Shown in pieces: positions 2,431-64,000 of a stretch of DNA of 64,000 nucleotides. The position numbers and the translations under genes are program-made. Positions within the stretch are counted from its first letter, which is position 1. Every line of letters begins with the position of its first letter. Location of the stretch: NCBI GenBank assembly GCA_964389365.1, contig CAYMDO010000008.1, forward strand, positions 5,231-69,230, in the 5' to 3' direction. The stretch is from an uncultured Syntrophomonadaceae bacterium (lineage in GTDB: Bacteria > Bacillota > Dethiobacteria > DTU022). The notes below the pieces were generated by a model. The model had not been told where the DNA came from, searched no databases, and saw only the letters and a list, made by a program, of their open reading frames with translations.

Positions 2431-3935
2431 ACCGGCCTGGTCGAATTTGCCCGTGGCCTGGTAAAGCTGGGCTATACTGTCATCTTCACCGGAGGAACCA
2501 AAAAACGCTGCAGGAAGCCGGCCTGCCGGTAACCGGTGTTTCGGAGGTGACCGGGTTCCCGGAAATCCTGGACGGCCGTGTCAAGACACTGCACCCGCTG
2601 ATCCACGGCGGTATCCTGGCCCGCCGTGACTAGGAGGTGCACAGGCAGCAACTTGACGCGCACGGTATCGGCGCCATTGACTTGGTGGCAGTTAATCTTT
2701 ACCCGTTTGCGCAAACGGTGGCGAAGCTTAATGTCACGCTGGAGGAAGCTGTAGAAAACATAGACATCGGCGGCCCGGCCATGGTACGGGCGGCGGCCAA
2801 AAACTACTGCCATGTGGCGGTAGTGGTTAACCCGGCCCGCTACGGGGAGGTCCTGTCAGAGCTCACGCAGCACGGGTCGATAAGCGAAGCTGTACGTTTT
2901 GCCCTTTCCGTGGAGGCGTTTACCCACACGGCCGAATACGCTGCAATGATCAGCGGTTGGCTGCAGCGGCAGTTACCCGGTGCCCCGGCATTCCCGCAAA
3001 CGCTGGTGCTGCCTTTTACCCTGCAGCAGGCGTTGCGCTACGGGGAAAATCCGCAAGTCGAGGCCGCTTTTTACCGGGAAGCGGCCCCCTCACCCGGCAG
3101 CATAGGCGCCGCACGTCAGTTGCACGGACGGGAACTGTCCTTTAACAACCTGAACGACTTAAACGCCGCCTGGGACCTGGTGCGGGAATTTGCCGAGCCG
3201 GCGGCGGTGGCCGTCAAGCATACCAACCCCTGCGGCGTGGCTGTGGGGTGGGACCTCTTCAGTGCGTACGCGGCAGCTTATGATGCTGACCTGGTTTTCA
3301 TCTTCGAAGGCATCGTGGCTGTCAACCGGACGTTAGACGCCCATACGGCGGCCAGGATGAGCGAAATTTTCCTGGAAGTGATTATCGCCCCGGAGTATGA
3401 ACCGGAGGCGTTGGAGATGTTGACGGCCAAAGCTGACCTGCGCCTGCTTTCGTGCCCGCTTGACCCTGCTTCCCGACAGACCATAGACTTTAAGAAAGTC
3501 TCCGGGGGGCTGCTGATCCAGGAGGCGGACAATCAGCCGGTCGAGCCAGCCGTCTGGAAACAGGTCAGTAAAGCGGGCGCGAGCGCTCAAATGCTGGCTG
3601 ACATGGTCTTTGCCATGAAGGTAGTCAAACACGTTAAGTCCAACGCCATTGTACTGGCTGCAAACGGCCAGACGGTCGGTATCGGCGCCGGGCAGATGAA
3701 TCGTGTCGGAGTTGCCCGCATCGCAGTTGCCCAGGCCGGGCAAAAGGCCCGCGGCTCTGTCCTGGCGTCAGACGCTTTCTTCTTGTTCCGCGATACGGTT
3801 GACGAGGCGGCGGCAGCCGGAGTGGCCGGCATCGTCCAGCCGGGCGGCTCCCTGAAGGACCAGGAATCGGTTGCGGCAGCCGATGAGTACGGCCTAGTCA
3901 TGCTGATGACCGGCAGACGCTTCTTTAAACACTAG
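2428..3935 (+). pseudogene. purH: bifunctional AICAR transformylase / IMP cyclohydrolase, disrupted
   Basis: PurH-like text ([25 protein letters not shown] / [42 protein letters not shown] / EVHRQQLDAHGIGAIDLVAVNLYPF..) is spread over two frames. There is no start upstream of TGLVEF (a TAA at 2428-2430 occupies that position), a -1 shift in the A6 run near 2496-2501, and an in-frame TAG at 2631-2633. Only 2637..3935 remains as an ORF. Conserved C-terminal motifs are also altered (FFLFRD, RRFFKH). Confidence 0.8.
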
Positions 3936-3947
3936 GAGGGAATTCCT

Positions 3948-5225
3948 GTGCGGATTATGATCGTTGGCAGCGGCGGTCGGGAGCATGCCCTGGCCTGGAA
4001 ACTGAGCATGAGTCCACGGGTGCAAAAAATCTATTGTGTTCCGGGAAACGCCGGCATCGCGCAGGCAGCCAAATGCCTGCCGGCTGACCTTGAGGACTCC
4101 GACAGGTTTGTTCATCTGGCCGTGCAAAACGAAGTGGACCTGGTGGTAGTCGGACCGGAGGCGCCACTGGCGACAGGCCTGGTCGATGCCCTTACCGCCG
4201 CCGGGGTGCCGGCTTTCGGTCCCGGCAAGCTTGCCGCTCAACTGGAAAGCAGCAAGGTCTTTGCCAAGCAGTTGATGGAGAGGTACCAGATCCCGACCGC
4301 TGCCGGCAGTGTTTTTACCGGTTCGGCAGCCGCACTCGCTGAGATTGAAAAGAGAGGTGTCCCCATTGTCGTTAAGGCAGATGGCCTGGCTGCCGGCAAA
4401 GGAGTAATTGTAGCCGCCACCAGGGAAGAAGCGGCACGTGCCGTCCGACTGATCATGGAGGAGCGCGCCTTTGGCTCTGCCGGTAACAAGGTTCTTCTTG
4501 AATAATACCTGGCGGGAGAGGAACTTTCTGTTTTGGCGTTTACCGATGGCGAAACGGTCGTCCCGATGGCCTCCGCCCAGGACCATAAGGCCGTCTTTGA
4601 CGGCGATACCGGCCCTAACACCGGCGGCATGGGAGCGTATTCCACGGCGCCTTTGCTGACGCCGGAACTGCTTGCAGAAGTGCAGGAGGAAATCCTGCTG
4701 CCCACCGTCCGCGCCCTGCGTCGTGAAGGCATCGTTTTCCGGGGCGTTCTCTACGCCGGGCTGATGATCACGGCCGGCGGCCCTAAAGTAATGGAATTCA
4801 ACGTACGCTTTGGCGATCCGGAATGCCAGGTAATCCTGCCCCGTTTAAAGAGTGACCTAGGAGCGGTAATGTTAGCCACGATTAACGGCAACCTAGGCGA
4901 GCAGGACCTGCACTGGCACAACTACCATACTGCCTGTGTAGTTATGGCTTTAGGCGGCTACCTGGGACCTTACGAAAAAGGTCACTCTATTTCCGGACTG
5001 GAGCAAGCAGCAGCTATGCCTGATGTCCAGGTCTTTCACAGCGGCACGGTACTTCAGGACGGTAAAACGGTGACCAACGGTGGCCGCGTTCTTTCCGTTA
5101 CGGCCTGGGGCGCTTCCCTGCCGGCGGCCCTGGACAAAGCTTACGCCGCCTGCCGGGTCATATCTTTTACCAGTGCATACTACCGGAAAGACATCGGCCA
5201 CCGTGCCCTGCGCCGGGAAGTTTAA
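3948..5225 (+). pseudogene. purD: phosphoribosylamine-glycine ligase interrupted by an in-frame TAA
   Basis: ORFs 3948..4505 and 4533..5225 are in the same frame. The sequence reads ..GNKVLLE-TAA(4503-4505)-YLAGEELSVLAFTDGETVVPMASAQDHKAVFDGDTGPNTGGMGAYS, so continuous PurD similarity runs across the stop. Confidence 0.85.
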
Positions 5226-6513: not shown

Positions 6514-6879
6514 ATGCCTTTTAAGCCTAAACGTCCCTGTTCCCATTTCAGCTGTCCGAAGCTGACGGACGATAGGTTTTGCGCAGAACACGCCAAAGAG
6601 GAAGCAAAACGGTACGAACGTTACCAGCGCGACCCGGCGACGCGCAAGCTCTACGGCCGGACGTGGCGGAAGGTGCGCGACCGCTACCGCGCGGCGCATC
6701 CGCTCTGCGAACGCTGCTTAGAGCAGGGAAGGATTACGCCGACGCAGGAAGTCCACCACGTCAAGCCGCTCGCGCAAGGCGGCACCAACGATGACGATAA
6801 TCTCACGGCGTTGTGTACTTCCTGCCACTCGGAGATCACCGCGCGTGAAGGCGGACGCTGGCAGAGACGCTTAGAATAA
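6514..6879 (+). CDS. HNH endonuclease (phage type)
   Basis: 121 aa, apparently intact. ..HPLCERCLEQGRITPTQEVHHVKPLAQGGTNDDDNLTALCTSCHSEIT carries the HNH motif and Cys pairs. Confidence 0.85.
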   Translation: MPFKPKRPCSHFSCPKLTDDRFCAEHAKEEAKRYERYQRDPATRKLYGRTWRKVRDRYRAAHPLCERCLEQGRITPTQEVHHVKPLAQGGTNDDDNLTALCTSCHSEITAREGGRWQRRLE

Positions 6880-7146
6880 ATCACTGTGGGTACCCGTGCG
6901 GGTCAGCGTAAGGATTAGAACATCGTTCTCAATACGATAGATAAGCAGCCAATCGGGCTGGATATGACATTCCCGATGCCCGACATAGGTGCCGGTCAAT
7001 TCATGGTCGCGGTTACTCGAAGGAAGCGGGATGCCCTGCGCCAGCTTCGCAATGATTTTGTCAAGCAAGGAAATATCCAAGTTGCGTTTTCCCATCAGCT
7101 TGTAGTCCTTGCGGAATCTGCTTGTTAGTTTGACGGTATATTTCAT
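6871..7146 (-). CDS. type II toxin, YafQ/RelE family
   Basis: 91 aa. MKYTVKLTSRFRKDYKLM...HELTGTYVGHRECHIQPDWLLIYR is typical of YafQ-like mRNA interferases. It overlaps the upstream antitoxin gene by 4 nt. Confidence 0.85.
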   Translation of the reverse strand: MKYTVKLTSRFRKDYKLMGKRNLDISLLDKIIAKLAQGIPLPSSNRDHELTGTYVGHRECHIQPDWLLIYRIENDVLILTLTRTGTHSDLF

Positions 7147-7415
7147 GCTTTCAAATCCTTAAACAGCGCGTCAAGATCGGTATAACCCCTAACGTTCGGG
7201 TCGCGGGCAATGGTTTCCGCTTCTCTCATTGCCGCGATTGTTTCTGCATTCGGAACACGGGAAATCTTAAACGGGATTCCTTGGAACCGTACAGCCTGCC
7301 GAAGGAACATGGTCATGGCTGTGGTCATATTGAGACCCAAGTCCGAGAAGAGTTCTTCGGCCTGCTTCTTAAGTTGAACATCCATCCGGATGCTGACATT
7401 TGTGGTTTCATTCAT
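7143..7415 (-). CDS. type II antitoxin, DinJ/RelB family
   Basis: 90 aa. VSIRMDVQLKKQAEELFSDLGLNMTTAMTMFLRQAV is a DinJ-like ribbon-helix-helix N-terminus. Confidence 0.85.
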   Translation of the reverse strand: MNETTNVSIRMDVQLKKQAEELFSDLGLNMTTAMTMFLRQAVRFQGIPFKISRVPNAETIAAMREAETIARDPNVRGYTDLDALFKDLKA

Positions 7416-7439
7416 GGCATTACACTCCTTTCATTGCTT

Positions 7440-7477
7440 AGTATATTCAATATACTGCATGATATTTACGTTGTCAA
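7440..7477 (-). promoter_or_regulatory. sigma-A-type promoter with overlapping palindromic operator for the TA operon
   Basis: On the minus strand: TTGACA (7477-7472), a 17-nt spacer, then TATATT (7454-7449). A perfect palindrome agtatat-tca-atatact at 7440-7456 overlaps the -10, about 25 nt upstream of the antitoxin ATG. Confidence 0.55.
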
Positions 7478-7611
7478 TGCAAAAGCAAAATGTGTGCGTC
7501 CGGTAGGGGCGGTCAAAATCTCTGCAACCTTCGCCCAGGGCAACGGGCGGCGGGTCACGCGCGAAAAAATCACGGTTCAAACAGGGGATTAAGCCCCGCC
7601 GCGGCAAGGAG

Positions 7612-8283
7612 GTGAGGGCGTGTGGCAAAAGACGGAATAACCCGTGGCTGCGGCGCTACGTCAGCCCGGACGACGGGCTATTGGGCAGGAACCGGCATAA
7701 CAACCACTGGAACCAGGACAGGCCCGACGGACGGCTGGTTTGTGTCCATGCCTTTATCGGGAGGCTTGCGGATGGCTCAATTGCCACTTACCAGACTTTG
7801 CCGTGGAACCATCGCGGCTGGCACTGCGGCAGATGCGTGAGAGGCTCCGGCAACGACACGCATATCTCCTTCGAGATCAGCGAGGATAACCTGACCGACG
7901 CTGCCTATTTCAACGCCGTGTACAAGGAAGCCGCAGAACTTTGCGCTTTCCTCTGCAAAGAGTACACCCTTGATCCAATGGCTGACGGCATTATCATCGG
8001 GCATTATGAAGGGCATAGGCGCGGCATCGCTTCCAACCACGCAGACCCCGGTCACTGGTTTCTAAGGCACGGGAAGTCGATGGACACCTTCCGCGCCGAG
8101 GTCAAGTGGCTACTCACGTCGGGCGAAACGCCGAAGCCACCCGCTCCCGCGCCTGCGCCTACCGAGTCGAAAAAGCTGTACCGCGTTCAGGTCGGGGCGT
8201 TCAGCTCCAAGGCAAATGCCAACGCGATGCTCGCCCGGGTAAAGGCGGCGGGGTTTGTCGACGCTTTCATCAAAACCGAATAA
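7612..8283 (+). CDS. N-acetylmuramoyl-L-alanine amidase (Amidase_2) with C-terminal SPOR domain, probably N-terminally truncated
   Basis: NNPWLRRYVSPDDGLLGRNRHNNHWNQ..LVCVHAFIG..YQTLPWNHRGWHCG..THISFEISE..IIGHYEGH..SNHADPGHWF, then a PAPAPAP linker and KLYRVQVGAFSSKANANAMLARVKAAGF (SPOR). The segment that normally precedes NNPW, which holds the first Zn-ligand His, is missing. The only good SD (AAGGAGGTG) feeds GTG 7622 in a different frame. Confidence 0.7.
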   Translation: MRACGKRRNNPWLRRYVSPDDGLLGRNRHNNHWNQDRPDGRLVCVHAFIGRLADGSIATYQTLPWNHRGWHCGRCVRGSGNDTHISFEISEDNLTDAAYFNAVYKEAAELCAFLCKEYTLDPMADGIIIGHYEGHRRGIASNHADPGHWFLRHGKSMDTFRAEVKWLLTSGETPKPPAPAPAPTESKKLYRVQVGAFSSKANANAMLARVKAAGFVDAFIKTE

Positions 8284-8310
8284 TTCGCACGTTTCGGTTG
8301 CCAACTTACA

Positions 8311-8350
8311 CCCCTCCCTGTCCTGTGGATAGTGAGGGGTTTTCCTTTTT
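8311..8350 (+). terminator. possible terminator after the amidase gene
   Basis: cccctc (8311-8316) pairs with gagggg (8334-8339) and is followed by ttttccttttt. The loop is large (17 nt). Confidence 0.35.
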
Positions 8351-8375
8351 CCACTCCGAAACGGAGGAATAGCCT

Positions 8376-8780
8376 ATGACCACATTACAAAAAGAACGAA
8401 TAGTTCATCTGCGCTCGCAAGGCGAAAGCTATGCGAGAATTGCCAACGAACTTAGAATATCGGAAAACACCGTTAAGTCTTGCTGTCGCAGAAACAATGT
8501 CAGCGTTGGTACAAAACAAGAACAGTACACTTCTAAGGATGTCTGCGACAACTGCGAATGTCCGCTCTTACACACGCCGGGGGCGAAGCGGAAACGCTTC
8601 TGCTCCGACAAATGCCGTATGATGTGGTGGAAGGCTCACCCCGAAGCCGTAAACCGCAAGGCAGTCTACCGTTTCGCCTGCCCGGCCTGCGGAGCGGAAT
8701 TTGAAGCTTGCGGGAACACGCATCACAAATACTGCTCGCGGTCTTGCTTCGGGGCGGCGAGGAGGACTTCCGATGAGTAA
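8376..8780 (+). CDS. HTH (sigma-70 region-4-like) plus Cys-rich zinc-ribbon protein
   Basis: 134 aa. LRSQGESYARIANELRISENTVKSCCRRN is a helix-turn-helix. Several CxxC pairs follow downstream. From memory, this gene type commonly precedes serine recombinases in clostridial elements. Confidence 0.6.
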   Translation: MTTLQKERIVHLRSQGESYARIANELRISENTVKSCCRRNNVSVGTKQEQYTSKDVCDNCECPLLHTPGAKRKRFCSDKCRMMWWKAHPEAVNRKAVYRFACPACGAEFEACGNTHHKYCSRSCFGAARRTSDE

Positions 8781-9012
8781 AGACGAGGCAATCCCACGCT
8801 ACAAAGCGTCAATGTCCGTGTTCAAGAAATGGCTTGATGGCGGCGTTATCACCCAGGCTGACCTGAGATCAATTGATACAATGCTCGCTTTGAAATACGG
8901 TTTATCCTCGTGCAGCATATTCCTCGAAAAAGACTTGCTATGTAAGGAAAGCAGAGTGATAGATGGTACTGCGAAAGAAGGCCGTTATGGGCAGAAAGAT
9001 AACGAAAATTGA
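8773..9012 (+). CDS. small hypothetical protein of the recombinase module
   Basis: ATG 8773 overlaps the upstream stop. 79 aa (MSKDEAIPRYKASMSVFKKWLDGGVITQADLRSIDTMLALKYGL..). Function unknown. Confidence 0.4.
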   Translation: MSKDEAIPRYKASMSVFKKWLDGGVITQADLRSIDTMLALKYGLSSCSIFLEKDLLCKESRVIDGTAKEGRYGQKDNEN

Positions 9013-10303
9013 ATCTACGGCACAGATGCCAACCAGACAACGGGTCGCGGCGTATGCCCGTGTTTCCTGCGGGAAGGACGAGATACTCCACTCCCTTGCC
9101 GCTCAGGTCAGCTTTTACAGTAACCTGATACAAAGCAATCCCGAATGGGAGTATATCGGCGTATACGCAGATGAAGCTGAAACCGGCACAAAGGGTTCAA
9201 GACCTGAATTTCAGCGACTGCTTGCCGACTGCCGTGCGGGGCGCATCGACCTTATCCTAACAAAGTCAATCAGCCGTTTTGCAAGGAACACGGTCATGCT
9301 ACTTGAAACTATCCGAGAGTTGAAAGGCATCGGCGTTGGCGTGTTTTTCGAGGAGCAGAATCTGCACTCGCTTTCGGGCGATGGGGAGTTGATGCTCACT
9401 ATCCTCGCAAGCTACGCACAGGAAGAAAGCCGCTCGGTCAGCGAAAACTGCAAATGGCGTATCCGCAAGGACTTTAAGGAGGGCAGGCCCGGGGGCAACA
9501 TCCGCATTTACGGATTCGACTACAAGGACGGCAGACTGACCGTCATTCCGGAGGAAGCCGAGGTCGTGCGGATGATATACGCCGACTATTTGTCGGGGCT
9601 TGGCAAGAACGCCATTATGAAGAAACTGGTCAGGCTCGGAGTGCCGACGAAATGCGGCGGCCGATGGTCGGAAAGCACAGTGGGTTCAATCCTTAAGAAT
9701 GAAAAGTACATCGGTGATATGTACCTGCAAAAAGGCTTTATTTCCGACCACATCACAAAGAATTGGAAGCCAAACAACGGCGAGTTGCCTAAATACTATG
9801 TCGAGGGCAACCATGAAGCGATTATCGACCGTGAGACCTTTGAGTCTGTTCAGGCTGAAATAGCACGGCGGGCAGAAAATGCAAACCACCCTCGCAAACG
9901 GACATTCAGTGAATTTTCAGGACTTATCACTTGCGGTCGGTGCGGTGCAAAATTTCGCAAAAAGATAAACTCAATCAACACAAAATATGCTGCGGTGACA
10001 TGGGCTTGCGCTACTTTCACTTATAAGGGTAAGCACGAATGTGCTGCGAAACGTATACGCGAAGATATCCTTAAAGAAAAGTGCGCCGAGGTGTTGGGGC
10101 TTTCCGAGTATGACCCCGCCGTGTTCACGGCAAAGGTAGCCTCAATTAGAGTCCCTGACGACGGCGTTCTGATATTCACATTAAAAGACGGCACGGAGCA
10201 GACGATTAACTGGGAGAACCGCTCCCGCCGTGAAAGCTGGACGGATATGAGGAAGCAAACCGCCCGTGAAAAGGCTTTGACGGGAGACGGTCGAAATGGC
10301 TAA
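8987..10303 (+). CDS. large serine recombinase
   Basis: [13 protein letters not shown] (catalytic Ser region), [31 protein letters not shown], a recombinase domain and a Cys-rich zinc beta-ribbon (CGRCGAKF..C). 438 aa, apparently intact. Confidence 0.9.
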
Positions 10304-11543
10304 TGTACGGGTAATCCCCGCCACTGCCCCTGTCGTTTCGGCCCAAGAGAGAAATTCAGCAGCCAGACGCAGAGTAGCCGCCTACGCAAGGGTCAGCACC
10401 GACAGCGACGAGCAGCTCACCAGCTACGAAGCTCAAGTTGACTACTACACAAAGCTAATTTAAGGGCGGTCGGATTGGAAATTTGTCACAGTTTATACGG
10501 ACGAGGGCATTTCAGCAGTGAACATGAAACGACGTGAGGGCTTCAAGCAGATGGTTGCCGACGGCTTGGCGGGTAAGTTTGATTTACTCGTTACCAAGTC
10601 GGTGAGCCGTTTCGCCCGAAACACGGTTGACAGTCTGATCACTGTCCGTAAGCTTAAAGATGTCGGTTGCGAGGTCTGGTTTGAAAAGGAAAACATCTTC
10701 ACACTCGACAGCAAGGGCGAACTGCTGATTACGATAATGTCCTCGCTGGCACAGGAGGAAAGCCGCTCCATTTCAGAAAACGAGACGTGGGGTCAGCGCA
10801 AGCGCATGGCCGACGGCAAGGTCAGCCTTCCGTATGCCCAGTTCCTCGGTTACGAGAAGGGCGAGGACGGTTTGCCAAAGGTAGTCCCCGCCGAAGCGGA
10901 GATTGTGCGGCCGATATTCAGGCTATATATGGAGGGCAAGACATTCTCGGCAATCGCCAAGTACCTCGGCAGTTATGACCTCCCTTCGCCGGCGGGCAAG
11001 AAAACATGGCAGACGGCGGTGGTGCGGTCAATCCTGACCAATGAAAAATACAAAGGCCACGCGCTTTTGCAAAAGACCTACTGCTCGGACTTCCTCACCA
11101 AGAAGATGGTCAAGAATACTGGCCAGGTACAGCAATATTACGTCGAGGACAGCCATCCCGCCATCATCGAGCCGGACGAATTTGACGCGGTTCAGGTAGA
11201 GATAGAGCGCCGCCGCTCGATTGGCAAACCGACAAGCTGCACGAGCATTTTCGCAGCGAAGATTGTTTGCGCCGACTGCGGCGGGTGGTTTGGCAAAAAG
11301 GTCTGGGGCAGTTACAAGGGCGATAAGACCTACCGAAAGGAAGTCTGGCAGTGCAACTACAAGTACAAACGGCTCTGCAAAGCGAAGATTATCGAGGGCT
11401 TCATTCGGGACATCGAGAGCCGACCGCTCGCCATCACCGAGTTCGACGAAAAGTTATGGCTCGCCGTCATTGACCAAGCGATCGTCAGCAGAGACGGCAC
11501 GATGACATTCAGGCTCAGGAACGGCTCTGAAGTCGTCGCATAA
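10296..11543 (+). pseudogene. large serine recombinase with premature in-frame TAA
   Basis: ATG 10296 gives [39 protein letters not shown], then TAA (10461-10463), then the same frame continues [42 protein letters not shown]... The C-terminal part looks shorter than in typical family members. Confidence 0.85.
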
Positions 11544-11559
11544 CATCTGAAAATCCACG

Positions 11560-11586
11560 GCTCGCCTTCGGGCGGGCTGTTTTTTT
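11560..11586 (+). terminator. rho-independent terminator after the recombinase genes
   Basis: gctcgcc-ttcg-ggcgggc forms a 7-bp stem, followed by T7 (after a 2-nt tg spacer). Confidence 0.65.
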
Positions 11587-11610
11587 GCCTGTGTTTGTGT
11601 GTGTGAAAGA

Positions 11611-11698
11611 GCTATCTTTTAACGGGTCGGTGTATCGTTAAAAGATAGCCCGATTTTCGGTGCAAATTTTAACGATTTGCTTTCTTTTAACGATTTGC
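11611..11698. repeat. cluster of four TTTTAACG-core repeats (one inverted pair plus one direct pair)
   Basis: gctatcttttaacg (11611-11624) and its exact reverse complement cgttaaaagatagc (11636-11649). ttttaacgatttgc occurs at 11667-11680 and again at 11685-11698. Confidence 0.8.
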
Positions 11699-11886
11699 CT
11701 GTGTGCCTGCCCTGAAAACCGCCACGGTTCAAGTCAAGTGTCCTCCAAAAACAGCAAAACAAAGCTGCCATAAAATAATAAAAGCCGTTCTGCAAACCCG
11801 CGAGAATGGCTTAAATACAGCACTTTCAAGTAAAACAAAAACCACCCACCGATAAAAATCTTTTTATCAATAGATGGTAGATTATC

Positions 11887-12239
11887 TGGTGGAGGCGGCG
11901 GGAATCGAACCCGCGTCCGAAGGCACAGCTGCAGAAGTTTCTACAAGTTTAGTTCCGGATTTGTTTCTCGCGCCCCCGGCTCCCCGGAACGGGATCTTTC
12001 GGCGCCAGCCCCGTTTGTTTTCCCTCGGCAGCGAAGAGGCAGCCGCTATCGAAGTAGGCCGGATTAGTGACGCCCCTGCTCCTTCCCCCGGCCGGGGTGG
12101 GGAGGGACGCGCTACTTTAGATTAAGCAGCGAGTGCTAATTTAGGTTTGGCGTTTATAGCCGTTCCATGTTTTAACCAGGCCATGGTCCTGGACCTGCCT
12201 CTTCTGCTTCCAAAACCCCCGTCGAATCCTTACGCCCCC
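11887..12239 (-). ncRNA. ssrA: tmRNA (transfer-messenger RNA)
   Basis: On the minus strand the 5' end is GGGGGCGTAAGGATTCGACGGGGG (12239 downward) and the 3' end is ..GGTTCGATTCCCGCCGCCTCCACCA (to 11887). An internal tag frame reads ..AAA CCT AAA TTA GCA CTC GCT GCT TAA (..KPKLALAA, stop at 12122-12124). It lies directly downstream of smpB. Confidence 0.92.
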
Positions 12240-12244
12240 AAACT

Positions 12245-12718
12245 TTATTCATTCCTCTGCCTATCCCTGAAAACTCTTTCCATCTCGCGCTTGCTGTCCC
12301 GTTCGGCAATATCGCGCCTTTTGTCGTACAACTTCTTACCGCGGGCTAGGCCAAGCTCAATTTTTACCAGCCCCCTGACCAGGTAAATTTTCAGGGGAAT
12401 CAGGGAGTAACCCTTTTCTTTTATTTTACCGCTCAGCCTGCTGATCTCGATTTTTCTCATCAGCAGTTTCCTGATCCTCAGCGGTTCATGGTTAAAGCGG
12501 TTGCCCTGCTCGTAGGGGCTTATATGCATATTATACAGGAAAAGTTCGTTTCCTTCAACCTTGGCAAAGCTGTCTTTTAAATTAACCCTCGCATTGCGGA
12601 CAGATTTCACTTCGGTGCCGGTCAACACAATACCCGCCTCGAATGAATCCTCTATATGGTAATCATGCCGCGCTTTACGATTGGTGCTAATTACTTTATC
12701 CACAGTTTCATACTCCAT
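12245..12718 (-). CDS. smpB: SsrA-binding protein
   Basis: ..[33 protein letters not shown].. is the SmpB signature. ATG 12718 was chosen by N-terminal length comparison; the ORF itself extends to 12751. Confidence 0.92.
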
Positions 12719-12728
12719 TAAAATCGTG

Positions 12729-13292
12729 TCATACCCCCGTCCCCTTGTCACGAAATTTCAGGGGGTTGTCCCATTTTTCGCTGAAAACGATTTCGTGCAG
12801 GCTTTTGCGGGGGCGGGCACCGGGTGCTGCATTGGGATAGCCGAGGGGCGAAAGGGCCACCACCCGGTAATCATGCGGCACTCCGCAGGCTGCCCGCGCC
12901 TTCTCTTGATCAAAGTATGCCACCCAGCAAGTGCCGAGACCTTCGGCATGGGCGGCCAGCATCAGCTGCTGCATAGCCAAACCGGCATCAAGCAGGTAAT
13001 ATTCCTTGCGATCATGTACGCCCGACTCTTTCGGATCGGCACACAGGACCAGCACCAGCGGCGCCGTTTCACCAACCGCCTTACGGGCCGGGTTGCTGAC
13101 AGGCATACTCTCGGCCAGGGCCTCTTTAACCAACACATCTCTCACAACAATAAAACGCCAGCACTGGAGGTTGCTCCAGGAGGGAGCAGCACGGGCCGCT
13201 TCCAGTATCCGTTCCAGTTTTTCAACCGGCACCGGATCAGGCTTATACTTTCTGATACTGCGCCGACTATATATAGCATGGTATAGATCCAT
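12729..13292 (-). CDS. nitroreductase family protein
   Basis: [37 protein letters not shown] is a nitroreductase-fold N-terminus. GGAGG precedes ATG 13292. Confidence 0.85.
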
Positions 13293-39479: not shown

Positions 39480-40620
39480 CTATTTCTTCAGAGGAATCAT
39501 CCCGCGCGCTTTCCAGCGCAGGTACGCTTCGATAAATGGATCAAGCAGGCCGTCCATAACCGCCTCGACCTGCCCCACCTCGGTGCCGGTCCTGTGATCC
39601 TTAACCAGGGTAAAGGGGTGGAAAGTATAGGTACGGAACTGGCTGCCAAAACCAATTTCACGTTGCTGGCCTCTCTCGGCGTTAATCTCTTCAGCCTGTT
39701 CGCGCCGCGCTATCTCAGCCAGGCGAGCCTGCAGCACATGCATCGCCTGCTGGCGGTTGGCATGCTGGGAGCGGTCATTCTGGCAGCTTACGACAGTACC
39801 GGTAGGCAGGTGGGTAATGCGCACTGCCGAATCGGTTTTATTCACATGCTGGCCGCCGGCCCCGCTGGCCCTGAAAGTGTCGATCTTCAAGTCTTCCGGG
39901 TTAATAACAAAATCTTCTTCTTCAACTTCCGGAATCACGTCGACCGAGGCAAAAGATGTATGACGCCGCTTAGAGGTGTCAAAAGGCGAAATGCGGATCA
40001 TGCGGTGAACCCCTTTTTCAGCCTGCAGGTAGCCGTATGCAGCATGGCCGCGCACGATAAAGGTGGCGCTTTTAATACCGGCTTCATCGTCGGTTAAAAG
40101 ATCCACCAGTTCGACCGTGAAGCCTTTCTGCTCGCACCAGCGCATGTACATCCTGAGCAGCATTTCCGCCCAGTCCTGCGACTCAAGCCCTCCGGCGCCG
40201 GGATGCAGGGCCACAATCGCATCATTTAAATCATAGCTGCCGCTGAAGAGGGTTTCCAGTTCCAGCTGATCCAGCTTTTCAGCAATCTCGCGCAGGATCG
40301 GGTCTGCTTCCCGGACAGCTTCCTGTTCGGCGGCTTCTTCTTCAGCAGCTAGCTCGAGAAAGATTTCCGCCTCCCCGATCAGTTTATCCAGATCCTGCAC
40401 CGGGCGCACCTGTTCGCGCAGGGCCCCCATTTTTTTCATCTGTTCCTGGGCCCGGGCGCTGTCCTCCCAAAATTCGGGCTTGACCGTTTCCGCTTCCAGG
40501 GCTGCCAGATCGTGCAGTTTCAGTTCAAATTCAAAGAGAAACCCTCATTTCTTCCAGCCGCTCCCGGTGGAGGGCCAGTTGTTCAAGATTTTCCTTCAGC
40601 ATTTGATCACCATCTTTCAT
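39480..40620 (-). CDS. prfB: peptide chain release factor 2, requiring a programmed +1 frameshift
   Basis: ORF0 runs ATG 40620 .. CTT TGA (TGA at 40531-40533), giving 29 codons ending ..RVSL. The +1 frame continues EFELKLHDLAALEAETVKPEFWED.. into ORF 39480..40439, which carries the SPF and GGQ (RASGAGGQHVN) motifs. An SD-like GAGGG lies upstream of CTT TGA. Confidence 0.93.
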
Positions 40621-53832: not shown

Positions 53833-54000
53833 TCCTTCTAGTTGTTTTTCAATTAAAAATGTCTCTTACAATGCCGTTTTAATGATACTACAAAGCAGGG
53901 AGGCGGGCAAACAATAAACGCGGGTACTGCCGATATATTTATTGCAATATGATAAAATACAATCGTTCCTGAAGCAATTCCAAAAATGGGAGGTTCTATC

Positions 54001-54876
54001 GTGAAATATAGCGGTCAGTCGGAAACCGGCAGGATTGAAGCAATTTTGATGAAAAAACCGGAGGCGGCCTGGATCAGCCAGCAGAATACTGACAGCCAGT
54101 GGCGGCAGCTTAATTATCCGTCAGCCCCCGATTATGAAAAAGCACTCGACGAATACAGCCGGTTTGCCGCAATTATCGAAAACCATGTCGGGGAGGTGCA
54201 CTACCTGCCCGAAGACGGCAGTGTCGGCCTCGATTCAATCTACACCCACGACCCGGTGATTATAACCCAAAAAGGGGCCATCCTCTGCAGCATGGGCAAA
54301 AAAGAGCGTGTACCGGAACCGCAGGCCGCCGCACGATATCTGCAGGGCATTGGTATGCCGGTAATCGGAGAAATTAAAGCCCCCGGCAGAGTCGAGGGCG
54401 GCGATATCGTCTGGTTTGACGATGATACAGTTGCGGTCGGGATTGGCTACCGCACCAACCGCGAAGGGATTGCCCAGCTGCGGAAGCTGACAGAAGGCCT
54501 AGTCAGGGAAGTTATAGAGGTGCCGCTGCCGCACGGTAACGGGCCTGCTGAGTGCCTGCACCTGATGTCGATGATCAGCCCGATAGACCGCGACCTGGCC
54601 GTGGTCTATTCACCGCTGATGGTGGTACCGTTCCGCGAGCTGCTGATTGAAAAGGGAATCAGGTTTGTCGAGGTGCCGGCTGAAGAATACGACACATTCG
54701 GCTGCAACGTGCTGGCGCTGGCCCCGCGCAAATGCGTGATCATCGCCGGCAACCCGAAGACCAAAGCCGGCCTGGAAGAAGCCGGAGCCACCGTGTACGA
54801 ATACCCGGGCGAGGATGTTTCAATCAAGGGGGGCGGCGGCCCGACCTGCCTCACCCGCCCGCTGCTGCGCACCTGA
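54001..54876 (+). CDS. amidinotransferase-superfamily hydrolase (dimethylarginine dimethylaminohydrolase / arginine deiminase-like)
   Basis: GGGAGG lies 7 nt before GTG 54001. ..DSIYTHDP.., ..GGDIVWFDD.. and C-terminal ..IKGGGGPTCLTRPL (catalytic Cys motif of the guanidino-modifying fold). The size (~291 aa) fits DDAH better than ADI. Confidence 0.7.
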   Translation: MKYSGQSETGRIEAILMKKPEAAWISQQNTDSQWRQLNYPSAPDYEKALDEYSRFAAIIENHVGEVHYLPEDGSVGLDSIYTHDPVIITQKGAILCSMGKKERVPEPQAAARYLQGIGMPVIGEIKAPGRVEGGDIVWFDDDTVAVGIGYRTNREGIAQLRKLTEGLVREVIEVPLPHGNGPAECLHLMSMISPIDRDLAVVYSPLMVVPFRELLIEKGIRFVEVPAEEYDTFGCNVLALAPRKCVIIAGNPKTKAGLEEAGATVYEYPGEDVSIKGGGGPTCLTRPLLRT

Positions 54877-55023: not shown

Positions 55024-56493
55024 TTACCTTATGCCCAGTTCTTCCTCCCTGGCAGCAATAACCGCCAGCAGTTCTTCGTGCACCCCGCCCGGCAGGGGAT
55101 CGGGCCGGTGAGTCTCCAGGATCTCCCGTGCCTTCTCATCACATACGGCAGCAAGATCCTTTGCGCCCTTTTCGTTCCAAAACTGCCGCATCCGCCGGTC
55201 GATATATAGCGGGCTGGACAGTTTGCGCATATGATGATAAGTATGATCCTCGGCTAAAAAGTGGCCACGCGCGCCTACGCTTTTGATCACGTCAACAGCC
55301 AGGGTATCATCGGTAACAGGGATCCCCTCCAGCACCTTCCTGGTCATGGCAATAATCTCGTTATCCATGACCAGCTGGCCGAAACTCATCGTCAGGCCCA
55401 TCTCAAGCATCCCCCCGCCGTAAATCATATTGGCACCTGCCAGGGCCGGCAACAGGGTGGTGAGTGTCTTTTCATGGCCCGACTGAGCATCGGATAGTTT
55501 CGAATCGCCCTACGTGCCCGCCACATAGCTGGGCAGCAGGTACATCTGGGCCAGCTTGGCTACAGCCGCGCTGATCAAGCCAAGCTCCGGGCAGCCAACT
55601 GTTGCCGTGGTCTGTTTCAGGTCGATCATCGAAGTCGAACTGCCGTACATTACCGGGGCTCCTTTCCTGGTTAACTGGGCGAGCACAATGCCGCCGAGTA
55701 CCTCCGCATTGTGGGTAACCAGCGTCCCGGCCAGCGTGACCGGCGAGGTGGCGCCTGCAAGTGCCATCGAGAGTATGTTCTGGGGCAGGTTGGCCCGGGC
55801 ATATTCGATGATCGGGTCGGCGCAGCCTTCCGAAATGGTTAAAGGGCTCTGTGGGCAGGTGCAGCCGGAGACAATCGGCCGCTCTTTTAACTGTTCACGC
55901 CCCCCCGCCACCGCTGCCGCCATTTCGATCAGCAGCTGTGCCGAGCGCTTATCATGACAGGGCTGGGGCACATGCTTGGTTGTATTCGACACCGTAACCT
56001 CGTAGTTGTGCAGGCTTTCCATCTCGGGGTGCACGTCGCGGGGGGCAACAGTATTTTCAAGCATGTCGTACTGGTCGAGGGCATCGACCAGGCGGGCCAC
56101 ATCGCCCTTATCCTTCTTGGTCGATTTGCGGTATTCTCCGCTGTACGGATCGATAACCATCACCCCTTCGCCGAAGGGGCAGAAATTGACGCGGCCGCTC
56201 TCCAGCACAATATCGTGCTTCGGGTCGCGCCCGGCAAGAAAGACCTTTTTCGGGGCGCTGCCGATCGCTTCCTCCACAATATGGGCCGGTATTTTAACGA
56301 TCCGGCTGTCCCGATCCACATTGCAACCCCCGCCCTCGTAAATATCTATGGCGTTGTTGCTCTGGACAAAAAGCCCGGTATATTCCAGCACCTCCAGCGT
56401 AGCGTCATGGATCATCTCTAAATCCGAATCGGAAAACAGGCTGAGGCTGCAGCCCAAAAAAGAGCTTCTGCCGGCTATCCGGTTTCTTTTCAT
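55024..56493 (-). CDS. mttB: trimethylamine:corrinoid methyltransferase with in-frame UAG (predicted pyrrolysine)
   Basis: ORFs 55510..56493 and 55024..55452 are in the same frame. The only stop between them is TAG at 55510-55512: ..[48 protein letters not shown]... The joined length is 489 codons with the UAG at codon 328. From memory, Methanosarcina MttB is ~495 aa with Pyl at ~334. Confidence 0.88.
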
Positions 56494-56517
56494 TTACAAT
56501 CACCTGCCTTTAACTGG

Positions 56518-57909
56518 TTATTTTAAGCCGGTCTTCGCTTTAAACCGTTCCACCGAATTGATGCTGATTCCCAGGATCCCTGCAATCCTGATCTTGGCCT
56601 CAATGCCTTTTGCCGCCCCGGGTTCGGGCATCGGGTAGCCGATATCGAGGGACTGCCTCAGTTCGCGCATCACCGAGCAATCACCCAGGTCAAACGGCGT
56701 TACCCCCAATTTGGCGGCAACATAATCTTTTGCCCGGTCGATCTTCAGGCCGCGGGCCAGCTGCATCCTCAACACCAGATCTCCGGCAGTGCGGATACCG
56801 CCCATCCCGACAGCAACTTCCTGTGTAGCCTCGTTGCCGAAAGGATCACCGGAGCCCACCTATAAACCGTCGGCCTTGCCAATCTCGACCAGCGACTTTG
56901 CCGCCCGCGATACAGCATCGACCGGCGGCACCGGCGACAAAGGCGTTGCCCCCACGCCCATGCCTACATTGGCATGGACCGGGATAGAAGCCGCTTCAGC
57001 ACAAGCTTTGACAAAGGTGACCGCCCGTGCCAGGTTCCAGGGAAAAGTCTTATTGCTGTTGGTATTGATCACCGGCCCGAAAATGCTGACCCCGGCTTTC
57101 GCAGCCAGCTCGGCCTGCCGGTGGGGATAGAGCCCGGCCAAACGCTGCCCATCAAACTCAAGTTTACCGTGCATGCCAAGAATAAATTCGCCTGCCATAC
57201 CCATCTCGATCCCCAGGCCGGGGTACTTTTGTTTAATTTCCCTCGCTGCCAGCAGCGCGGCCAGGATATCGGCATCGCCTGAAGCGCCGCAGGTGTCGAG
57301 GTTAATGCCGTCGGCGCCGGCAGCATACATACCCCCGGCTATATAGACTATATCCCTGACAGCCAACTCGACAGCTTTTTCCTGCGCCTCCCGCGCCTCC
57401 ATAATTTTACCAAGCGGCAACAGCTCCGACCAGTTCTCGACCGGGCCGTCAGGTTTGGTGTAGAGGCCCAGGTTGGGCATCGCCCCGTAAAGAACCGGCA
57501 TAATCGAGTTCACCTGCACATTTTCCATTACCTTGGCTTCATCGTGCAGGATTGCTTTCACCGATTTAAAACTGTAGTCTATGTTGCCCAGGTCAAGCGA
57601 GTCGGCCGCGAGCACCTTTTCATGGACCTGGATCGCCGTGGCCCGGTCAAGCGAAATATTAGCCTGGTAGTTAATCTTGAAAGCCCCTGAATCAGAAGAG
57701 GTAACAATCTCTTTCCCCCTGACCACACTGGCCACATTAACCGGTGAAGTAACTATCTCAAACAGGTAATCGAGCTCATCGGCATTAAGCTCCGGGATCT
57801 TTCCCCGGTCGGCCGCATCGCGAGTGCCGCTTTCAAGCTCATCCTTAATCTCTGCAGCGCTTAAGCGCACCGCTGATCCGTCGCCCATGCGGGTTAAAAA
57901 TGATTCCAA
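56518..57909 (-). CDS. mtbB: dimethylamine:corrinoid methyltransferase with in-frame UAG (predicted pyrrolysine)
   Basis: ORFs 56860..57963 and 56518..56859 abut in the same frame across TAG 56860-56862: ..EIGKADGL-TAG-(V)GSGDPFGNEATQ... The likely start is TTG 57909, 8 nt after AGAGGTG, giving MESFLTRMGDGS... The joined product is 463 codons with the UAG at codon ~350. From memory, archaeal MtbB is ~467 aa with Pyl at ~356. Confidence 0.88.
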
Positions 57910-58136
57910 AACAGCAACACCTCTTTCAGCTATCATGCCCAGACGGCAGCTAAAGTAAACCACTCTAATAATTCATGATCAACTGCCGTTCTCCTCTAAC
58001 AAAAAAAGATCGGCAGGATGATGTTCAGGCCGGCAAAAGAGGTGGCTGCGGGAAATCCACCCCGGGCAGGGTAATCCTGAGTTTGCAGGAACCTGCCTTG
58101 GGCAATAATAACTTGATAACCTTACAGACAGAGTTT

Positions 58137-58163
58137 TATACGTTCTATACGTTCTATACGTTC
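58137..58163. repeat. three perfect tandem copies of a 9-bp unit (tatacgttc) upstream of mtbB
   Basis: tatacgttc tatacgttc tatacgttc, about 230 nt upstream of the mtbB start, in the only sizeable non-coding stretch before the operon. Confidence 0.85.
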
Positions 58164-58251
58164 TGCTTCAGATTACAAAGAAAGCAGTTACAATGACTAT
58201 ATACAACCGCGTAAAGGCCAGATAACGGATACAGAATTTGCTTTAAGTCTG

Positions 58252-58515
58252 ATGAGCAGAAAGCAGTTTGCAGAATACCACAATGAGGGTGGCGACGAGA
58301 AGTGCTTGGATATACGGGATGTGAAGAGGGTCGGTGACAGCAAGGCTCAGGCTATACTTCAGGCTGTCAGCCAATGTGGTGATGCATCCGAGTTTCAGGG
58401 ATTGCCGCGTGAGAAGAGGGACCGGTATTTGGTTCACTTGAAAGAGAAGGGGTTATCTGTGAGCCAGATCGAAAGATTGACAGGTGTAAACAGGGGAGTT
58501 GTACGGAAGGCATAA
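58252..58515 (+). pseudogene. orphan C-terminal fragment of a transposase-like protein (HTH tail)
   Basis: 87 aa. ..AQAILQAVSQCGDASEFQGLPREKRDRYLVHLKEKGLSVSQIERLTGVNRGVVRKA resembles, from memory, the C-terminal tail of IS200-like/REP-associated Y1 transposase-like proteins of Firmicutes. No catalytic domain is present. Confidence 0.35.
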
Positions 58516-58534
58516 TCGTGTTGTCAAACCCCCG

Positions 58535-58564
58535 TCCCCCCGGCACGCTTCCCCCCGGCACGCT
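58535..58564. repeat. perfect tandem duplication of a 15-bp unit (tccccccggcacgct)
   Basis: Copies at 58535-58549 and 58550-58564, directly downstream of the transposase-like fragment. Confidence 0.85.
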
Positions 58565-58689
58565 ATTATTCATGCCCTCTTCATCGCATTATTTAATTCA
58601 TTCTTAAAAGTTTGCCATAAGAAAGGATTCTGACAACTTGCCAGCGAATTGATTAGCTGTTTATACAATCAGTAGGAGGAGGATTTGAG

Positions 58690-60147
58690 ATGATTGGCAC
58701 AATTGATTTGGTTGTTTTTCTGGTTTATTTTTTAGCTGTCATCATTATTGGTTTTGTCACCTACGGCAAGGTCAAAGGGGGCTCTGATTACGCCCTCGCC
58801 GGGCGCTCCCTAGGCTGGCCGGTTACGATCGGCACCCTGGTGGCCACGATGATCGGTTCATCAGCTGCCATGGGCAAAGCAGGAACTGCCTTCGAATATG
58901 GCATCGGTATCATGTGGTCTCCGATTGCCATCTTCATTGGCTACATAGTGTTCAGTATTTTCATTGCCCATAAACTACGCCGGGCCAAAGCCTGGACAGT
59001 GCCTGATGTCCTCGAAAGACGGTTTGGCAGGGGCGTAAGAAGGCTGTCGGCAATAGTACTAGTTCTAGCTGTAATATCTATTTTTGGCGCCCAGCTGATC
59101 GCTATGGGTATTGTATTTCAACTGGCCGGCGAACCAATGGGCATAAACTACCAGCTTGCGATTTTGATTGCCGGCTTTATTTTGGTTCTCTACACAACTT
59201 TAGGAGGTCTCTATGCTGTTGCATTTACCGATTTGCTCCAGTTCGGGATCATGATTCCGGTTATTGCCATCGTTCTACCAATCCTGGTTTTCGGCAGCAG
59301 CGATATCAGTTTTGCCAACCTGACCAATCAACTGGAACCAAGGATGTTCAACCTCTTCACCGGGGTCCCCTTTACCCTGATCCTCGGCCTGCTTTTTACG
59401 TACATTCCGGGTGTAATTATCGATCAATCGATCTGGCAGAGAGTTATGTCCGCCAAAAATGTGCAGGTAGCCCGCTGGAGCCCGGTGATCAGCGGCGCTA
59501 TCTATTTTTACTTTAGCATTATTGTTGTCTTGATTGGCATGGTCGGTGCGATCCTTTACCCCAATATTGTCGCTGAACAAGGAAATGCCGACGGTATTCT
59601 CCCAATGATGATCGCCCACTTCCTCCCCAAAGGAGTTACCGGTTTAGGCCTGACTGCACTTTTTGCCGTTGCCATGTCTACAGCCAGCACCTGTCTTTTG
59701 GTTGCCGCTGTTATCGTTGCCAAAGACCTAGTCCCGGCTTTCTCAAAGAAAACATACACTGAAGGCGACGAGCTTCGCATTTCAAGAATCGCATCCGGAG
59801 TAATCGGTATTGCCGGGATTATCTTTGCCCTCACCTTCAGCGGCATATTCTGGATCATGCTGATTGCCTATGGTATTTTCGTCTCCGCTCTCTTCTTCCC
59901 GGTAATCGCCGCCCTCTTCTGGAAGAAAGCAACGAAAAAAGCGGCCATCATCAGTATAATTGCCAGCACTATTGTAATGGTAGTCTTCCTGGTTATTCCG
60001 ACTAACCTGGAGGCAGTTATACCGGCCGGGATTACAAGTTTTGTTTTAATGGTTGGAATCAGCCTGGCCACTTACCATAAGGAAGATCTAACCCCGCCTG
60101 TATTAAGTGACGAAGAACTGCAAAAGGCAAACAACGAAGCAACGTAG
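58690..60147 (+). CDS. sodium:solute symporter (SSS) family transporter
   Basis: 485 aa, about 12-13 TM segments, SSS-like N-terminus (..GGSDYALAGRSLGWPV..). AGGAGGAGG precedes the ATG. Confidence 0.85.
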   Translation: MIGTIDLVVFLVYFLAVIIIGFVTYGKVKGGSDYALAGRSLGWPVTIGTLVATMIGSSAAMGKAGTAFEYGIGIMWSPIAIFIGYIVFSIFIAHKLRRAKAWTVPDVLERRFGRGVRRLSAIVLVLAVISIFGAQLIAMGIVFQLAGEPMGINYQLAILIAGFILVLYTTLGGLYAVAFTDLLQFGIMIPVIAIVLPILVFGSSDISFANLTNQLEPRMFNLFTGVPFTLILGLLFTYIPGVIIDQSIWQRVMSAKNVQVARWSPVISGAIYFYFSIIVVLIGMVGAILYPNIVAEQGNADGILPMMIAHFLPKGVTGLGLTALFAVAMSTASTCLLVAAVIVAKDLVPAFSKKTYTEGDELRISRIASGVIGIAGIIFALTFSGIFWIMLIAYGIFVSALFFPVIAALFWKKATKKAAIISIIASTIVMVVFLVIPTNLEAVIPAGITSFVLMVGISLATYHKEDLTPPVLSDEELQKANNEAT

Positions 60148-62641: not shown

Positions 62642-62873
62642 TAAATCAAGAAATGCAGCGCTCTGTTTTTGACATCAGGGCGCTGCTAAACCTTAATGTA
62701 GAATGCTGGCTAACGAATTTTAATAATGTTGAACAGACAAAAAAGAGCTATAACCACTTAATTAGGGAATAAGTTGATAGATTAATGATCTATCTTGAAA
62801 TTTCCTTTAAAAATTAAGTGTGCAGAAAATAAAAACTAACAAAATGTGACTGTTGATGCAACACAAAAGAACC

Positions 62874-62907
62874 GTCCCCTAGTGTTTTTTGTCCCCTAGT
62901 GTTTTTT
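62874..62907. repeat. perfect tandem duplication of a 17-bp unit (gtcccctagtgtttttt)
   Basis: Copies at 62874-62890 and 62891-62907, in the AT-rich spacer just upstream of a TG-n-TATAAT element. Confidence 0.8.
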
Positions 62908-62917
62908 AAAAGAGACT

Positions 62918-62926
62918 TGATATAAT
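62918..62926 (+). promoter_or_regulatory. possible extended -10 promoter (TGaTATAAT) for the methyltransferase gene
   Basis: tgatataat at 62918-62926, about 60 nt upstream of ATG 62988. No convincing -35 was seen. Confidence 0.35.
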
Positions 62927-62987
62927 CTTATAGGGTCAACTGCGATTAATTTATAGCTTTGGCCTTTTTGCACCAAATAAGAATTAT

Positions 62988-64000
62988 ATGAGCAATGTGC
63001 TTCGGAAGGAGCAGGTAGAAATATTGATCGAACAAGCAAGAAAGGTAATAGACTACTTAAAAGAATATACTTTCCAAGGAAATGATAACCTATCTCTATT
63101 TCCCACAGATAGCCGCACTATAATTGAGCCAATTGATATAAACGGAGTAAAAGTTAATAAATATATTAATGAATACTGGACTTCAAAACAGCGGCAATCA
63201 TCTTCAATTCACGAAATATCCTATCGCGCTTGCTTCAAAGCCCAATTGCCGCGATTCTTTATCAGACTTCTAACCGACCCGGGTGATACAGTATACGATC
63301 CTTTTAGTGGTCGTGGCACTACCGTTATAGAAGCAGGTATTCTTGGTAGAAAAGTTATTTCTAATGATATCAATCCTATAAGCAAGATTATTATCAGGCC
63401 TAGACTATCTAGCCCTGATGCAGAATTGATAGATCTAAGGCTTTCTGAGATTTCATTATATAAAAATATTAAGGCTGACATTGATTTGTCGATGTTTTAT
63501 CACCCTGAAACTGAAGCGGAGGTAGTATCTATAAAGCAATACCTGGATGGCAGAAACGAAGCCGGGGAAGAAGATGATCTAGACCGTTGGATTAGAATGG
63601 TTGCTACAAATCGCTTAACCGGACATTCATCTGGTTTCTTTTCTGTCTATACTTTACCGCCTAATCAAGCTGTTACCCAAGAAAGCCAAATTAAGATTAA
63701 TATTAAACGTAATCAAAAACCAGACTACCGGAATACAAAAAGGATTATAAAGCGCAAAACAGTAACGCTTTTAAAAAAAATGAAAGAGACGGAAGTTGTT
63801 AACTTGAGAAATGCAGCAAAAACTGTCTTGTTTATTGAAAAAGATGCCCGGGAAACAAGTGAAATTGAAACTAACAGCGTAAGCTTAACTGTAACTTCAC
63901 CTCCTTTTCTTGATATCGTGCAATATTCGCAGGATAATTGGCTGCGCTGCTGGTTTAATAGTATCAATACTGATGCCATAGAGAAAAAAATTACCATGTC
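62988..64000 (+). CDS. DNA methyltransferase (N4/N6 class), 3' end outside the window
   Basis: The frame is open from ATG 62988 to the window edge (translated by hand, no stops; it is absent from the ORF track because it is unterminated). It carries DPFSGRGTTVIEA (FxGxG AdoMet motif) and ..LTVTSPPF.. (catalytic SPPF/DPPY-type motif). The sequence is AT-rich, unlike its surroundings. Confidence 0.75.
   Translation, partial: MSNVLRKEQVEILIEQARKVIDYLKEYTFQGNDNLSLFPTDSRTIIEPIDINGVKVNKYINEYWTSKQRQSSSIHEISYRACFKAQLPRFFIRLLTDPGDTVYDPFSGRGTTVIEAGILGRKVISNDINPISKIIIRPRLSSPDAELIDLRLSEISLYKNIKADIDLSMFYHPETEAEVVSIKQYLDGRNEAGEEDDLDRWIRMVATNRLTGHSSGFFSVYTLPPNQAVTQESQIKINIKRNQKPDYRNTKRIIKRKTVTLLKKMKETEVVNLRNAAKTVLFIEKDARETSEIETNSVSLTVTSPPFLDIVQYSQDNWLRCWFNSINTDAIEKKITM

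Follow-up and report, generated by a model that had tools for sequence, protein, structure and literature searches.

The mtbB-mttB pair and its in-frame UAG codons

We have analyzed a stretch of 64,000 nucleotides (from here on the window, i.e., the whole stretch of DNA) of contig CAYMDO010000008.1, assembly GCA_964389365.1, which belongs to an uncultured Syntrophomonadaceae bacterium. Its minus strand carries two adjacent genes, mtbB and mttB, predicted to code for dimethylamine (DMA) and trimethylamine (TMA):corrinoid methyltransferases of the pyrrolysine (Pyl) type, and each gene contains one amber codon (UAG, TAG in the DNA) in frame. The mttB gene (55024..56493) runs from ATG 56493 to TAA 55024-55026 and consists of 489 codons plus the stop, with the TAG at 55510-55512 as the sole interruption in the sequence and its translation. 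Up to this TAG the upstream open reading frame (ORF) codes for 327 residues. The same frame then stays open to the TAA, and 19 open codons separate the TAG from the mechanically called downstream ORF, which starts at TTG 55452. An earlier note, made from the letters of this DNA, had described the two ORFs in the same frame, the single TAG and the 19 open codons, and all its numbers were correct when checked against sequence and translation. The joined length of 489 codons and the position of the UAG, codon 328, were re-derived as well. A ribosome-binding site, AAGGCAGGTG (56501..56510, minus strand), could be read from the sequence 7 nt upstream of the ATG, inside the 24-nt gap that follows mtbB.

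For the searches, the joined products had a residue in place of the UAG. MttB scored 716.1 bits against TIGR02369 (trimeth_pyl), the NCBIfam equivalog model of the Pyl-type TMA:corrinoid methyltransferase with a curated cut-off of 525 bits, and the match covered profile positions 1-467 of 469. Against the Pfam family MTTB (PF06253) it reached 336.7 bits. The best match in the PDB, found with phmmer, was the MttB of Methanosarcina barkeri (7XCL/7XCM, E=3e-125, residues 2-481), and in this alignment the UAG at 55510..55512, the predicted Pyl codon 328, pairs exactly with X334, the pyrrolysine of 7XCL (YVAGT-UAG-GDSK vs. YVAGS-X-SDAK). According to the earlier note, this position is a sense codon in non-Pyl members of the superfamily, and so it is in the non-Pyl DhMtgB (2QNE), which has Leu in the column of the UAG. 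A structural study of MttB named Gly110 and Tyr364 in the activation of Pyl and Met249 as the gate of the pocket (PMC9842639). Gly110, Met249 and Tyr364 of M. barkeri pair with conserved Gly108, Met243 and Tyr358 of the window protein, and the position of Thr111 is occupied by Glu.

The second gene, mtbB (56518..57909, minus strand), is absent from the earlier note. It sits 24 nt upstream of mttB on the same strand, ends at TAA 56518-56520 and has its UAG, the second predicted Pyl codon, at codon 350 (56860..56862). The mechanical ORF begins at GTG 57963. The likely start is TTG 57909, which is preceded by GAAAGAGGTG and corresponds to the codon at which the relatives begin. Joined MtbB scored 503.1 bits against TIGR02368, the equivalog of the Pyl-type DMA methyltransferase (cut-off 369.1 bits), and 608.6 bits against PF09505; no solved structure of MtbB exists for comparison. 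On the source contig a product of 349 residues is annotated (P0257). The short 24-nt gap together with the ribosome-binding site ahead of mttB indicate a two-gene operon on the minus strand, in the order mtbB and then mttB.

Conservation among relatives and translation through the UAG codons

We scanned the GTDB species genomes with the joined MttB, and 19 loci were returned, 18 of which hold the region of the Pyl codon. The relatives are metagenome-assembled genomes (MAGs) of uncultured Bacillota, named Syntrophomonadaceae, Bacillota or Clostridia bacterium; their sources are sediments of soda lakes, the CROMO serpentinite aquifer, a tar biofilm and digesters, and a 'K_DeepCast' MAG is also included. 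Their amino-acid identity to the window MttB was 81-93% in 17 cases and 50% in one; no relative is identical, hence the species of the window itself is missing from this set. The TAG was found at the homologous codon of mttB in all 18 loci, and at that of mtbB in all 15 relatives that cover this gene.

We aligned each gene in full over 15 related MAGs. Synonymous sites between the window and the relatives are saturated (synonymous divergence, dS, of 1 or more), and there is neither a frameshift nor a second stop in any of the 15. The ratio of nonsynonymous to synonymous divergence (dN/dS) of mttB was 0.045-0.053 over the 161 codons after the TAG vs. 0.026-0.068 before it, and in mtbB the raw pN/pS (the same ratio before correction) was equal on both sides of its TAG. 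The 19 codons located 3' of the TAG of mttB were especially informative. At the DNA level 18 of them differ among 16 genomes, but in protein 14 stay the same and the remaining five show conservative changes only; Ser331 is encoded by both AGY and TCN codons. Besides, 14 of the 16 genomes have no start codon in frame within this stretch. A protein conserved in spite of variable DNA, with so few codons for a restart, means that ribosomes pass the UAG of mttB. By this pattern of substitutions the UAGs of both genes are translated, and the codons beyond each of them are under a purifying selection as strong as that acting on the codons before. The earlier proposal of a genuine Pyl-type MttB is in this way strengthened by the equivalog match, by the UAG falling on Pyl334 and by the translation of the codons that follow it.

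These data also bear on the possibility that the UAG simply terminates, the gene being either a pseudogene or one part of a split enzyme whose C-terminal portion is made from TTG 55452. Public annotation would agree with that, since it gives separate products of 327 and 134-145 residues, and TAG does work as a stop for other genes of the window. However, the codons ahead of the first possible restart are conserved in protein and variable at synonymous positions, the downstream dN/dS stays at about 0.05 and the frame is intact in the fifteen relatives. Furthermore, a product of 327 residues would be devoid of Tyr358 and of the dimerisation loop. We regard termination at this codon as highly improbable.

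The gene order mtbB-mttB-...-metK-recD2 is kept in the relatives. This indicates that the pair is vertically inherited and a stable feature of the chromosome, and no recently acquired island.

Proposed function and the evidence on both sides

We consider it very probable that the mtbB-mttB pair of the window is a Pyl-dependent DMA/TMA:corrinoid methyltransferase operon, and that it belongs to an uncultured bacterium of the Bacillota related to Dethiobacter. In this proposal we infer that Pyl is inserted, which proteins are the partners and where the methyl groups go. A tRNA(Pyl), charged by PylS, would insert pyrrolysine at position 328 of MttB and 350 of MtbB, both the tRNA and the synthetase being presumably encoded elsewhere in the genome, and the full-length products would have 489 and 463 residues, respectively. 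By analogy with the M. barkeri enzyme, the pyrroline imine of Pyl328 would bind and activate TMA, with a Tyr358-water-Gly108 proton shuttle assisting and Met243 gating the pocket. The methyl group would be taken over by the Co(I) of a corrinoid protein encoded apart from the pair, and MtbB would act likewise on the DMA formed. From the methyl-corrinoid the group would go probably to tetrahydrofolate and then into the Wood-Ljungdahl pathway. Complete sets of Wood-Ljungdahl genes were described in two abundant populations among the Syntrophomonadaceae/Dethiobacter-related MAGs of soda lakes (Vavourakis et al., 2018; PMC6146748).

Several results weigh against this interpretation. We scanned every large ORF of the window with Pfam and NCBIfam, and by these scans, ARAGORN, Rfam and tblastn none of pylT, pylSc, pylSn, pylB, pylC and pylD was found in the 64 kb, nor were pyl genes present in 237 kb of related loci or in the flanks of up to 10 kb of the 18 relatives. 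In control runs ARAGORN recovered the tRNA-Pyl(CUA) in seven of seven bacterial pyl loci, so that the absence from the window and the related loci is reliable. Equally missing from the window are a corrinoid protein (B12-binding domain), an MtbA/MtqA-type methyltransferase and RamA. Upstream of mtbB no recognisable sigma-70 or sigma-54 promoter candidate appeared. A sigma-54 promoter in particular was rejected as there was no match within two mismatches in 57900-58700, although relatives have sigma-54 activators nearby.

The possible recoding signals gave no better support. The Rfam model PYLIS_3 (RF02510, mttB) matches 55413..55512 on the minus strand, 100 nt starting at the UAG, with 72.8 bits for a gathering score of 38, and PYLIS_2 (RF02509) matches 56763-56862, also on the minus strand, with 48.9 bits and the UAG of mtbB as its first three positions. 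Both matches exceed their gathering thresholds, and the start of both models exactly at the two TAGs speaks for the proposed function. Several of their base pairs are non-canonical in the window, and RNAalifold on 16 sequences gave a covariation term of only -0.35 kcal/mol. The authors who defined the PYLIS regions likewise found no common structure for mttB (PMC3639795). We have discarded PYLIS as a recoding signal here because the matches are driven by the homology of the coding sequence, with no covariation.

The use of TAG elsewhere in the window counts on the same side. Among 47 gene ends we found 27 TAA, 10 TGA and 10 TAG, i.e., TAG is still a stop codon, and six of the ten genes ending in it have a back-up stop within nine codons. 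With these numbers a wholesale reassignment of TAG was dismissed, and read-through would have to hinge on the supply of charged tRNA(Pyl) in competition with release factor 1, as in other Pyl-using bacteria. Four of the ten TAG-ended genes are in frame with the next gene, so that a read-through could run on into it: purH (2637-3935, plus strand) into purD, rapZ into whiA, a HAD hydrolase into rapZ and prfB into a YitT-family gene. This arrangement is probably due to chance.

The last point on this side is the quality of the sequence itself. The purD gene of the window (GAR synthetase; 3948-5225, plus strand) is broken by an in-frame TAA at 4503-4505 (LLE*YLAGEE), a position at which a sense codon would be expected in relatives, and whether pseudogene or assembly error, it shows that the assembly holds at least one broken gene or error. 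A TAG produced by mistake in the metagenome-assembled contig could be suspected for mttB on the same grounds. Against this, 18 independent assemblies have the very same codon, a 63-member cluster at 90% is made of MttB products of 327-330 residues, and run SRR11582139, assembled independently by Logan, shows the TAG too. Since independent assemblies carry it, a sequencing error is excluded in practice and we assign to it hardly any probability.

The identity of the inserted residue is a different matter. The UAG might be read through with a standard amino acid, by another suppressor tRNA or by near-cognate decoding, the enzyme being then a non-Pyl variant produced by leaky termination. The comparative data prove translation and not which residue is inserted, and the lack of pyl genes and tRNA-Pyl in the window and in the flanks of the relatives fits this alternative. 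On the other hand, the codon falls exactly at Pyl334, where non-Pyl members have a sense codon, and the partners Gly110 and Tyr364, specific of the Pyl enzyme, are conserved. A lineage devoid of Pyl would be expected to replace the TAG over a saturated divergence, and all 18 loci keep it. What makes the insertion of a standard residue unlikely, with only a small probability in our estimate, is that two different families of Pyl enzymes in one operon both retain the TAG at their Pyl sites over such a divergence.

Regarding the distribution of such systems, Firmicutes have been known to carry Pyl-type mttB genes for some two decades. As late as 2014 mtbB was considered almost confined to Methanosarcinales (PMC3941956). 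In the protein collections that we searched there were 3857 MtbB-like clusters; the best 120 of the 3857 were all 323-370 residues long and most of them 349-352, and every named source among these 120 closest matches listed was bacterial. A length of 349-352 residues is what would be expected if the gene call stops at the TAG, and this could be shown directly for the relatives that cover mtbB. A query with the PylSc of Desulfitobacterium hafniense returned 5156 clusters (the best 120 of the 5156 were inspected), and one with the PylRS of M. mazei gave 120 listed matches that were all of the Methanosarcina type. With 5156 PylSc and 3857 MtbB clusters, bacterial Pyl systems are widespread and the window pair is another example of a known bacterial trait. 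The remark in the earlier note that a Pyl-dependent TMA methyltransferase is uncommon in a bacterium was therefore overstated, with thousands of bacterial PylSc and MtbB clusters in public data.

The co-occurrence of the pair with the machinery was also considered. The mtbB-mttB pair was absent from the six PylSc assemblies that were traced (JAGFXU01, DATAMH01, JBFOMT01, MCHG01, JADQBO01, and CAZGDI01). Zhaonella formicivorans has a close relative of MtbB and a PylSc in one genome (P0309, P0173; chromosome of 3,314,304 bp). Our search of the literature, which covered Syntrophomonadaceae, Dethiobacter, Dethiobacteria and Desulfitibacter, retrieved nothing that links pyrrolysine to the clade of the window, and no paper that mentions run SRR11582139.

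The present understanding of pyrrolysine is unchanged by this pair, which has two modest peculiarities, its location apart from the pyl cassette and from any corrinoid gene, and the conserved presence of a DDAH-like neighbour. The latter is a DDAH/arginine-deiminase-like amidinotransferase gene (53986-54876, plus strand), convergent with mttB and adjacent to it in at least eight related genomes. The protein is below the NCBIfam cut-offs, with 90 bits vs. the 340 required for dimethylargininase. A true DDAH would release DMA, the substrate of MtbB. From this a more ambitious reading can be drawn, which we put forward only as a speculation and think rather doubtful. A widespread Dethiobacter-related clade would have a vertically inherited mtbB-mttB uncoupled from the pyl cassette and from a dedicated corrinoid protein, next to an amidinotransferase possibly releasing DMA. 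It would represent an undescribed Pyl-dependent route for methylamines in alkaline anoxic habitats, going for example from methylated arginine or another guanidino compound to DMA and methyl-corrinoid, with a shared corrinoid protein encoded in trans and a regulated read-through of UAG while TAG remains a stop. The clade is found in sediments of soda lakes, in groundwater of serpentinising sites, in the deep water of lakes and in digesters.

If the pair is a Pyl-dependent operon, as we favor, TMA and DMA demethylation would be assigned to a clade of uncultured Bacillota with a high abundance in the sediments of soda lakes (Vavourakis et al., 2018; PMC6146748). In public annotation this capacity goes unseen, as the products are cut short at 327 and 349 residues. 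The full genes would alter metabolic reconstructions, as methylamines become possible donors of methyl groups for the Wood-Ljungdahl pathway. That Pyl enzymes are encoded at a distance from the pyl cassette, with about one fifth of the genes sampled in the genome ending in TAG, also bears on how bacteria limit unwanted read-through.

Gene neighborhood and comparison with known systems

Judged by its genes, the window is an ordinary chromosomal region of the Bacillota. It includes genes for purine biosynthesis, two serine recombinases beside tmRNA and SmpB, RNase R, the eno-pgm-tpi-pgk group, rpoN, whiA, rapZ, uvrCAB, ftsEX, prfB, secA, hpf, comF, recD2 and metK. There are also a MoxR-type AAA ATPase with a VWA protein, a divergent cluster of an SSF symporter, an amidohydrolase and an AMP-ligase, and a DNA methylase at the AT-rich right end. 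The prfB gene (RF2; 39480-40600, minus strand) has a short upstream ORF that begins near 40601, and the CTT TGA at about 40528-40533 is its canonical site of programmed +1 frameshifting. The region 6514-12239 contains an HNH endonuclease, an amidase, a small HTH protein and the two serine recombinases (8963-10303 and 10518-11543), adjoined by the tmRNA (11887-12239, minus strand, tag AKPKLALAA), and its layout looks like an element integrated at ssrA. At the other extreme, 62650-64000 has a GC content of 37-43% vs. about 55% elsewhere, a 17-nt direct tandem repeat (GTCCCCTAGTGTTTTTT, twice at 62874-62907) and an N6/N4 DNA methylase ORF that begins at 62988 and runs off the end of the window. 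It is probably a foreign restriction-modification island.

Closer to the pair, a degenerate spacer of about 0.7 kb (57964-58690) lies upstream of mtbB, with a short tandem CGTATAGAA repeat near 58150-58180 and an ORF of 87 residues (58252-58515) with no match in Pfam. At this position some relatives have a non-Pyl paralogue of MttB, and a few of those also a GntR regulator (L008) or a sigma-54 activator (L013). As to corrinoid partners in the relatives, the 237 kb of related loci contained no corrinoid protein, MtbA/MtqA-type methyltransferase or RamA except for a weak MttC-like ORF in locus L011 (SKOR01000021, 14330-17526), about 3 kb downstream of mttB and followed by ORFs of 353 and 492 residues. 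For the organism of the window, a cognate MttC may have its gene outside the 64 kb. An ORF of 223 residues downstream of mttB in relatives was tried as the corrinoid protein MttC and rejected, since it is actually a metallo-beta-lactamase-fold protein.

Compared with the M. barkeri MttB (7XCL/7XCM/7XCN), the window protein aligns over nearly its full length, has its UAG on Pyl334 and conserves the motif YVAG[ST]-O-xD[SA]K...GHEKT. It differs in its bacterial host, in Glu for Thr111 and in having neither mttC nor mttP adjoining. Besides, in a bacterium coenzyme M cannot be what accepts the methyl group from the corrinoid protein. The non-Pyl members of the MttB superfamily, such as the glycine betaine methyltransferase DhMtgB (2QNE), share the same fold and the family PF06253. 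However, DhMtgB has Leu at the Pyl position and gives a far lower score, 238 vs. 421 bits, and the window gene passes the Pyl-specific equivalog.

Nearer in taxonomy are the Pyl-type mttB loci of Firmicutes, a class known from D. hafniense and Acetohalobium arabaticum and represented in our set by JBFOMT01 (L024) and MCHG01 (L028). As in the window, their mttB is split by one TAG, located at the same site, in a host of the Bacillota. In these loci the order is mttC-mttB(UAG)-pylSc-pylB-(pylC)-pylD-pylSn or pylT-pylSc-...-pylBCD-pylSn-mttC-mttB, i.e., a corrinoid gene and a pyl cassette with pylT stand beside mttB, whereas neither is found in the 64-kb window or in the flanks of the relatives. 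The identity of the window MttB to their proteins is only 43-57%. The pyl-mttC-mttB cluster of L028 (MCHG01000164) has in addition two choline-kinase-like genes (10893-12827) between pylSc and pylB, which recall the choline demethylation system described before (PMC12155760).

The most similar arrangements were those of Desulfitibacter sp. BRH_c19 (L034/L035) and Z. formicivorans (CP085524, L032), both with the order mtbB(UAG)-mttB(UAG) and an MtbB identity of 74-78%. In Zhaonella a corrinoid protein gene is located between the two UAG genes, and the window has none there. BRH_c19 resembles the window in that no corrinoid gene separates mtbB and mttB. Upstream it has a non-Pyl MttB paralogue, shared with five of the window relatives, and a sigma-54 activator, where the window has the degenerate 0.7-kb spacer instead.

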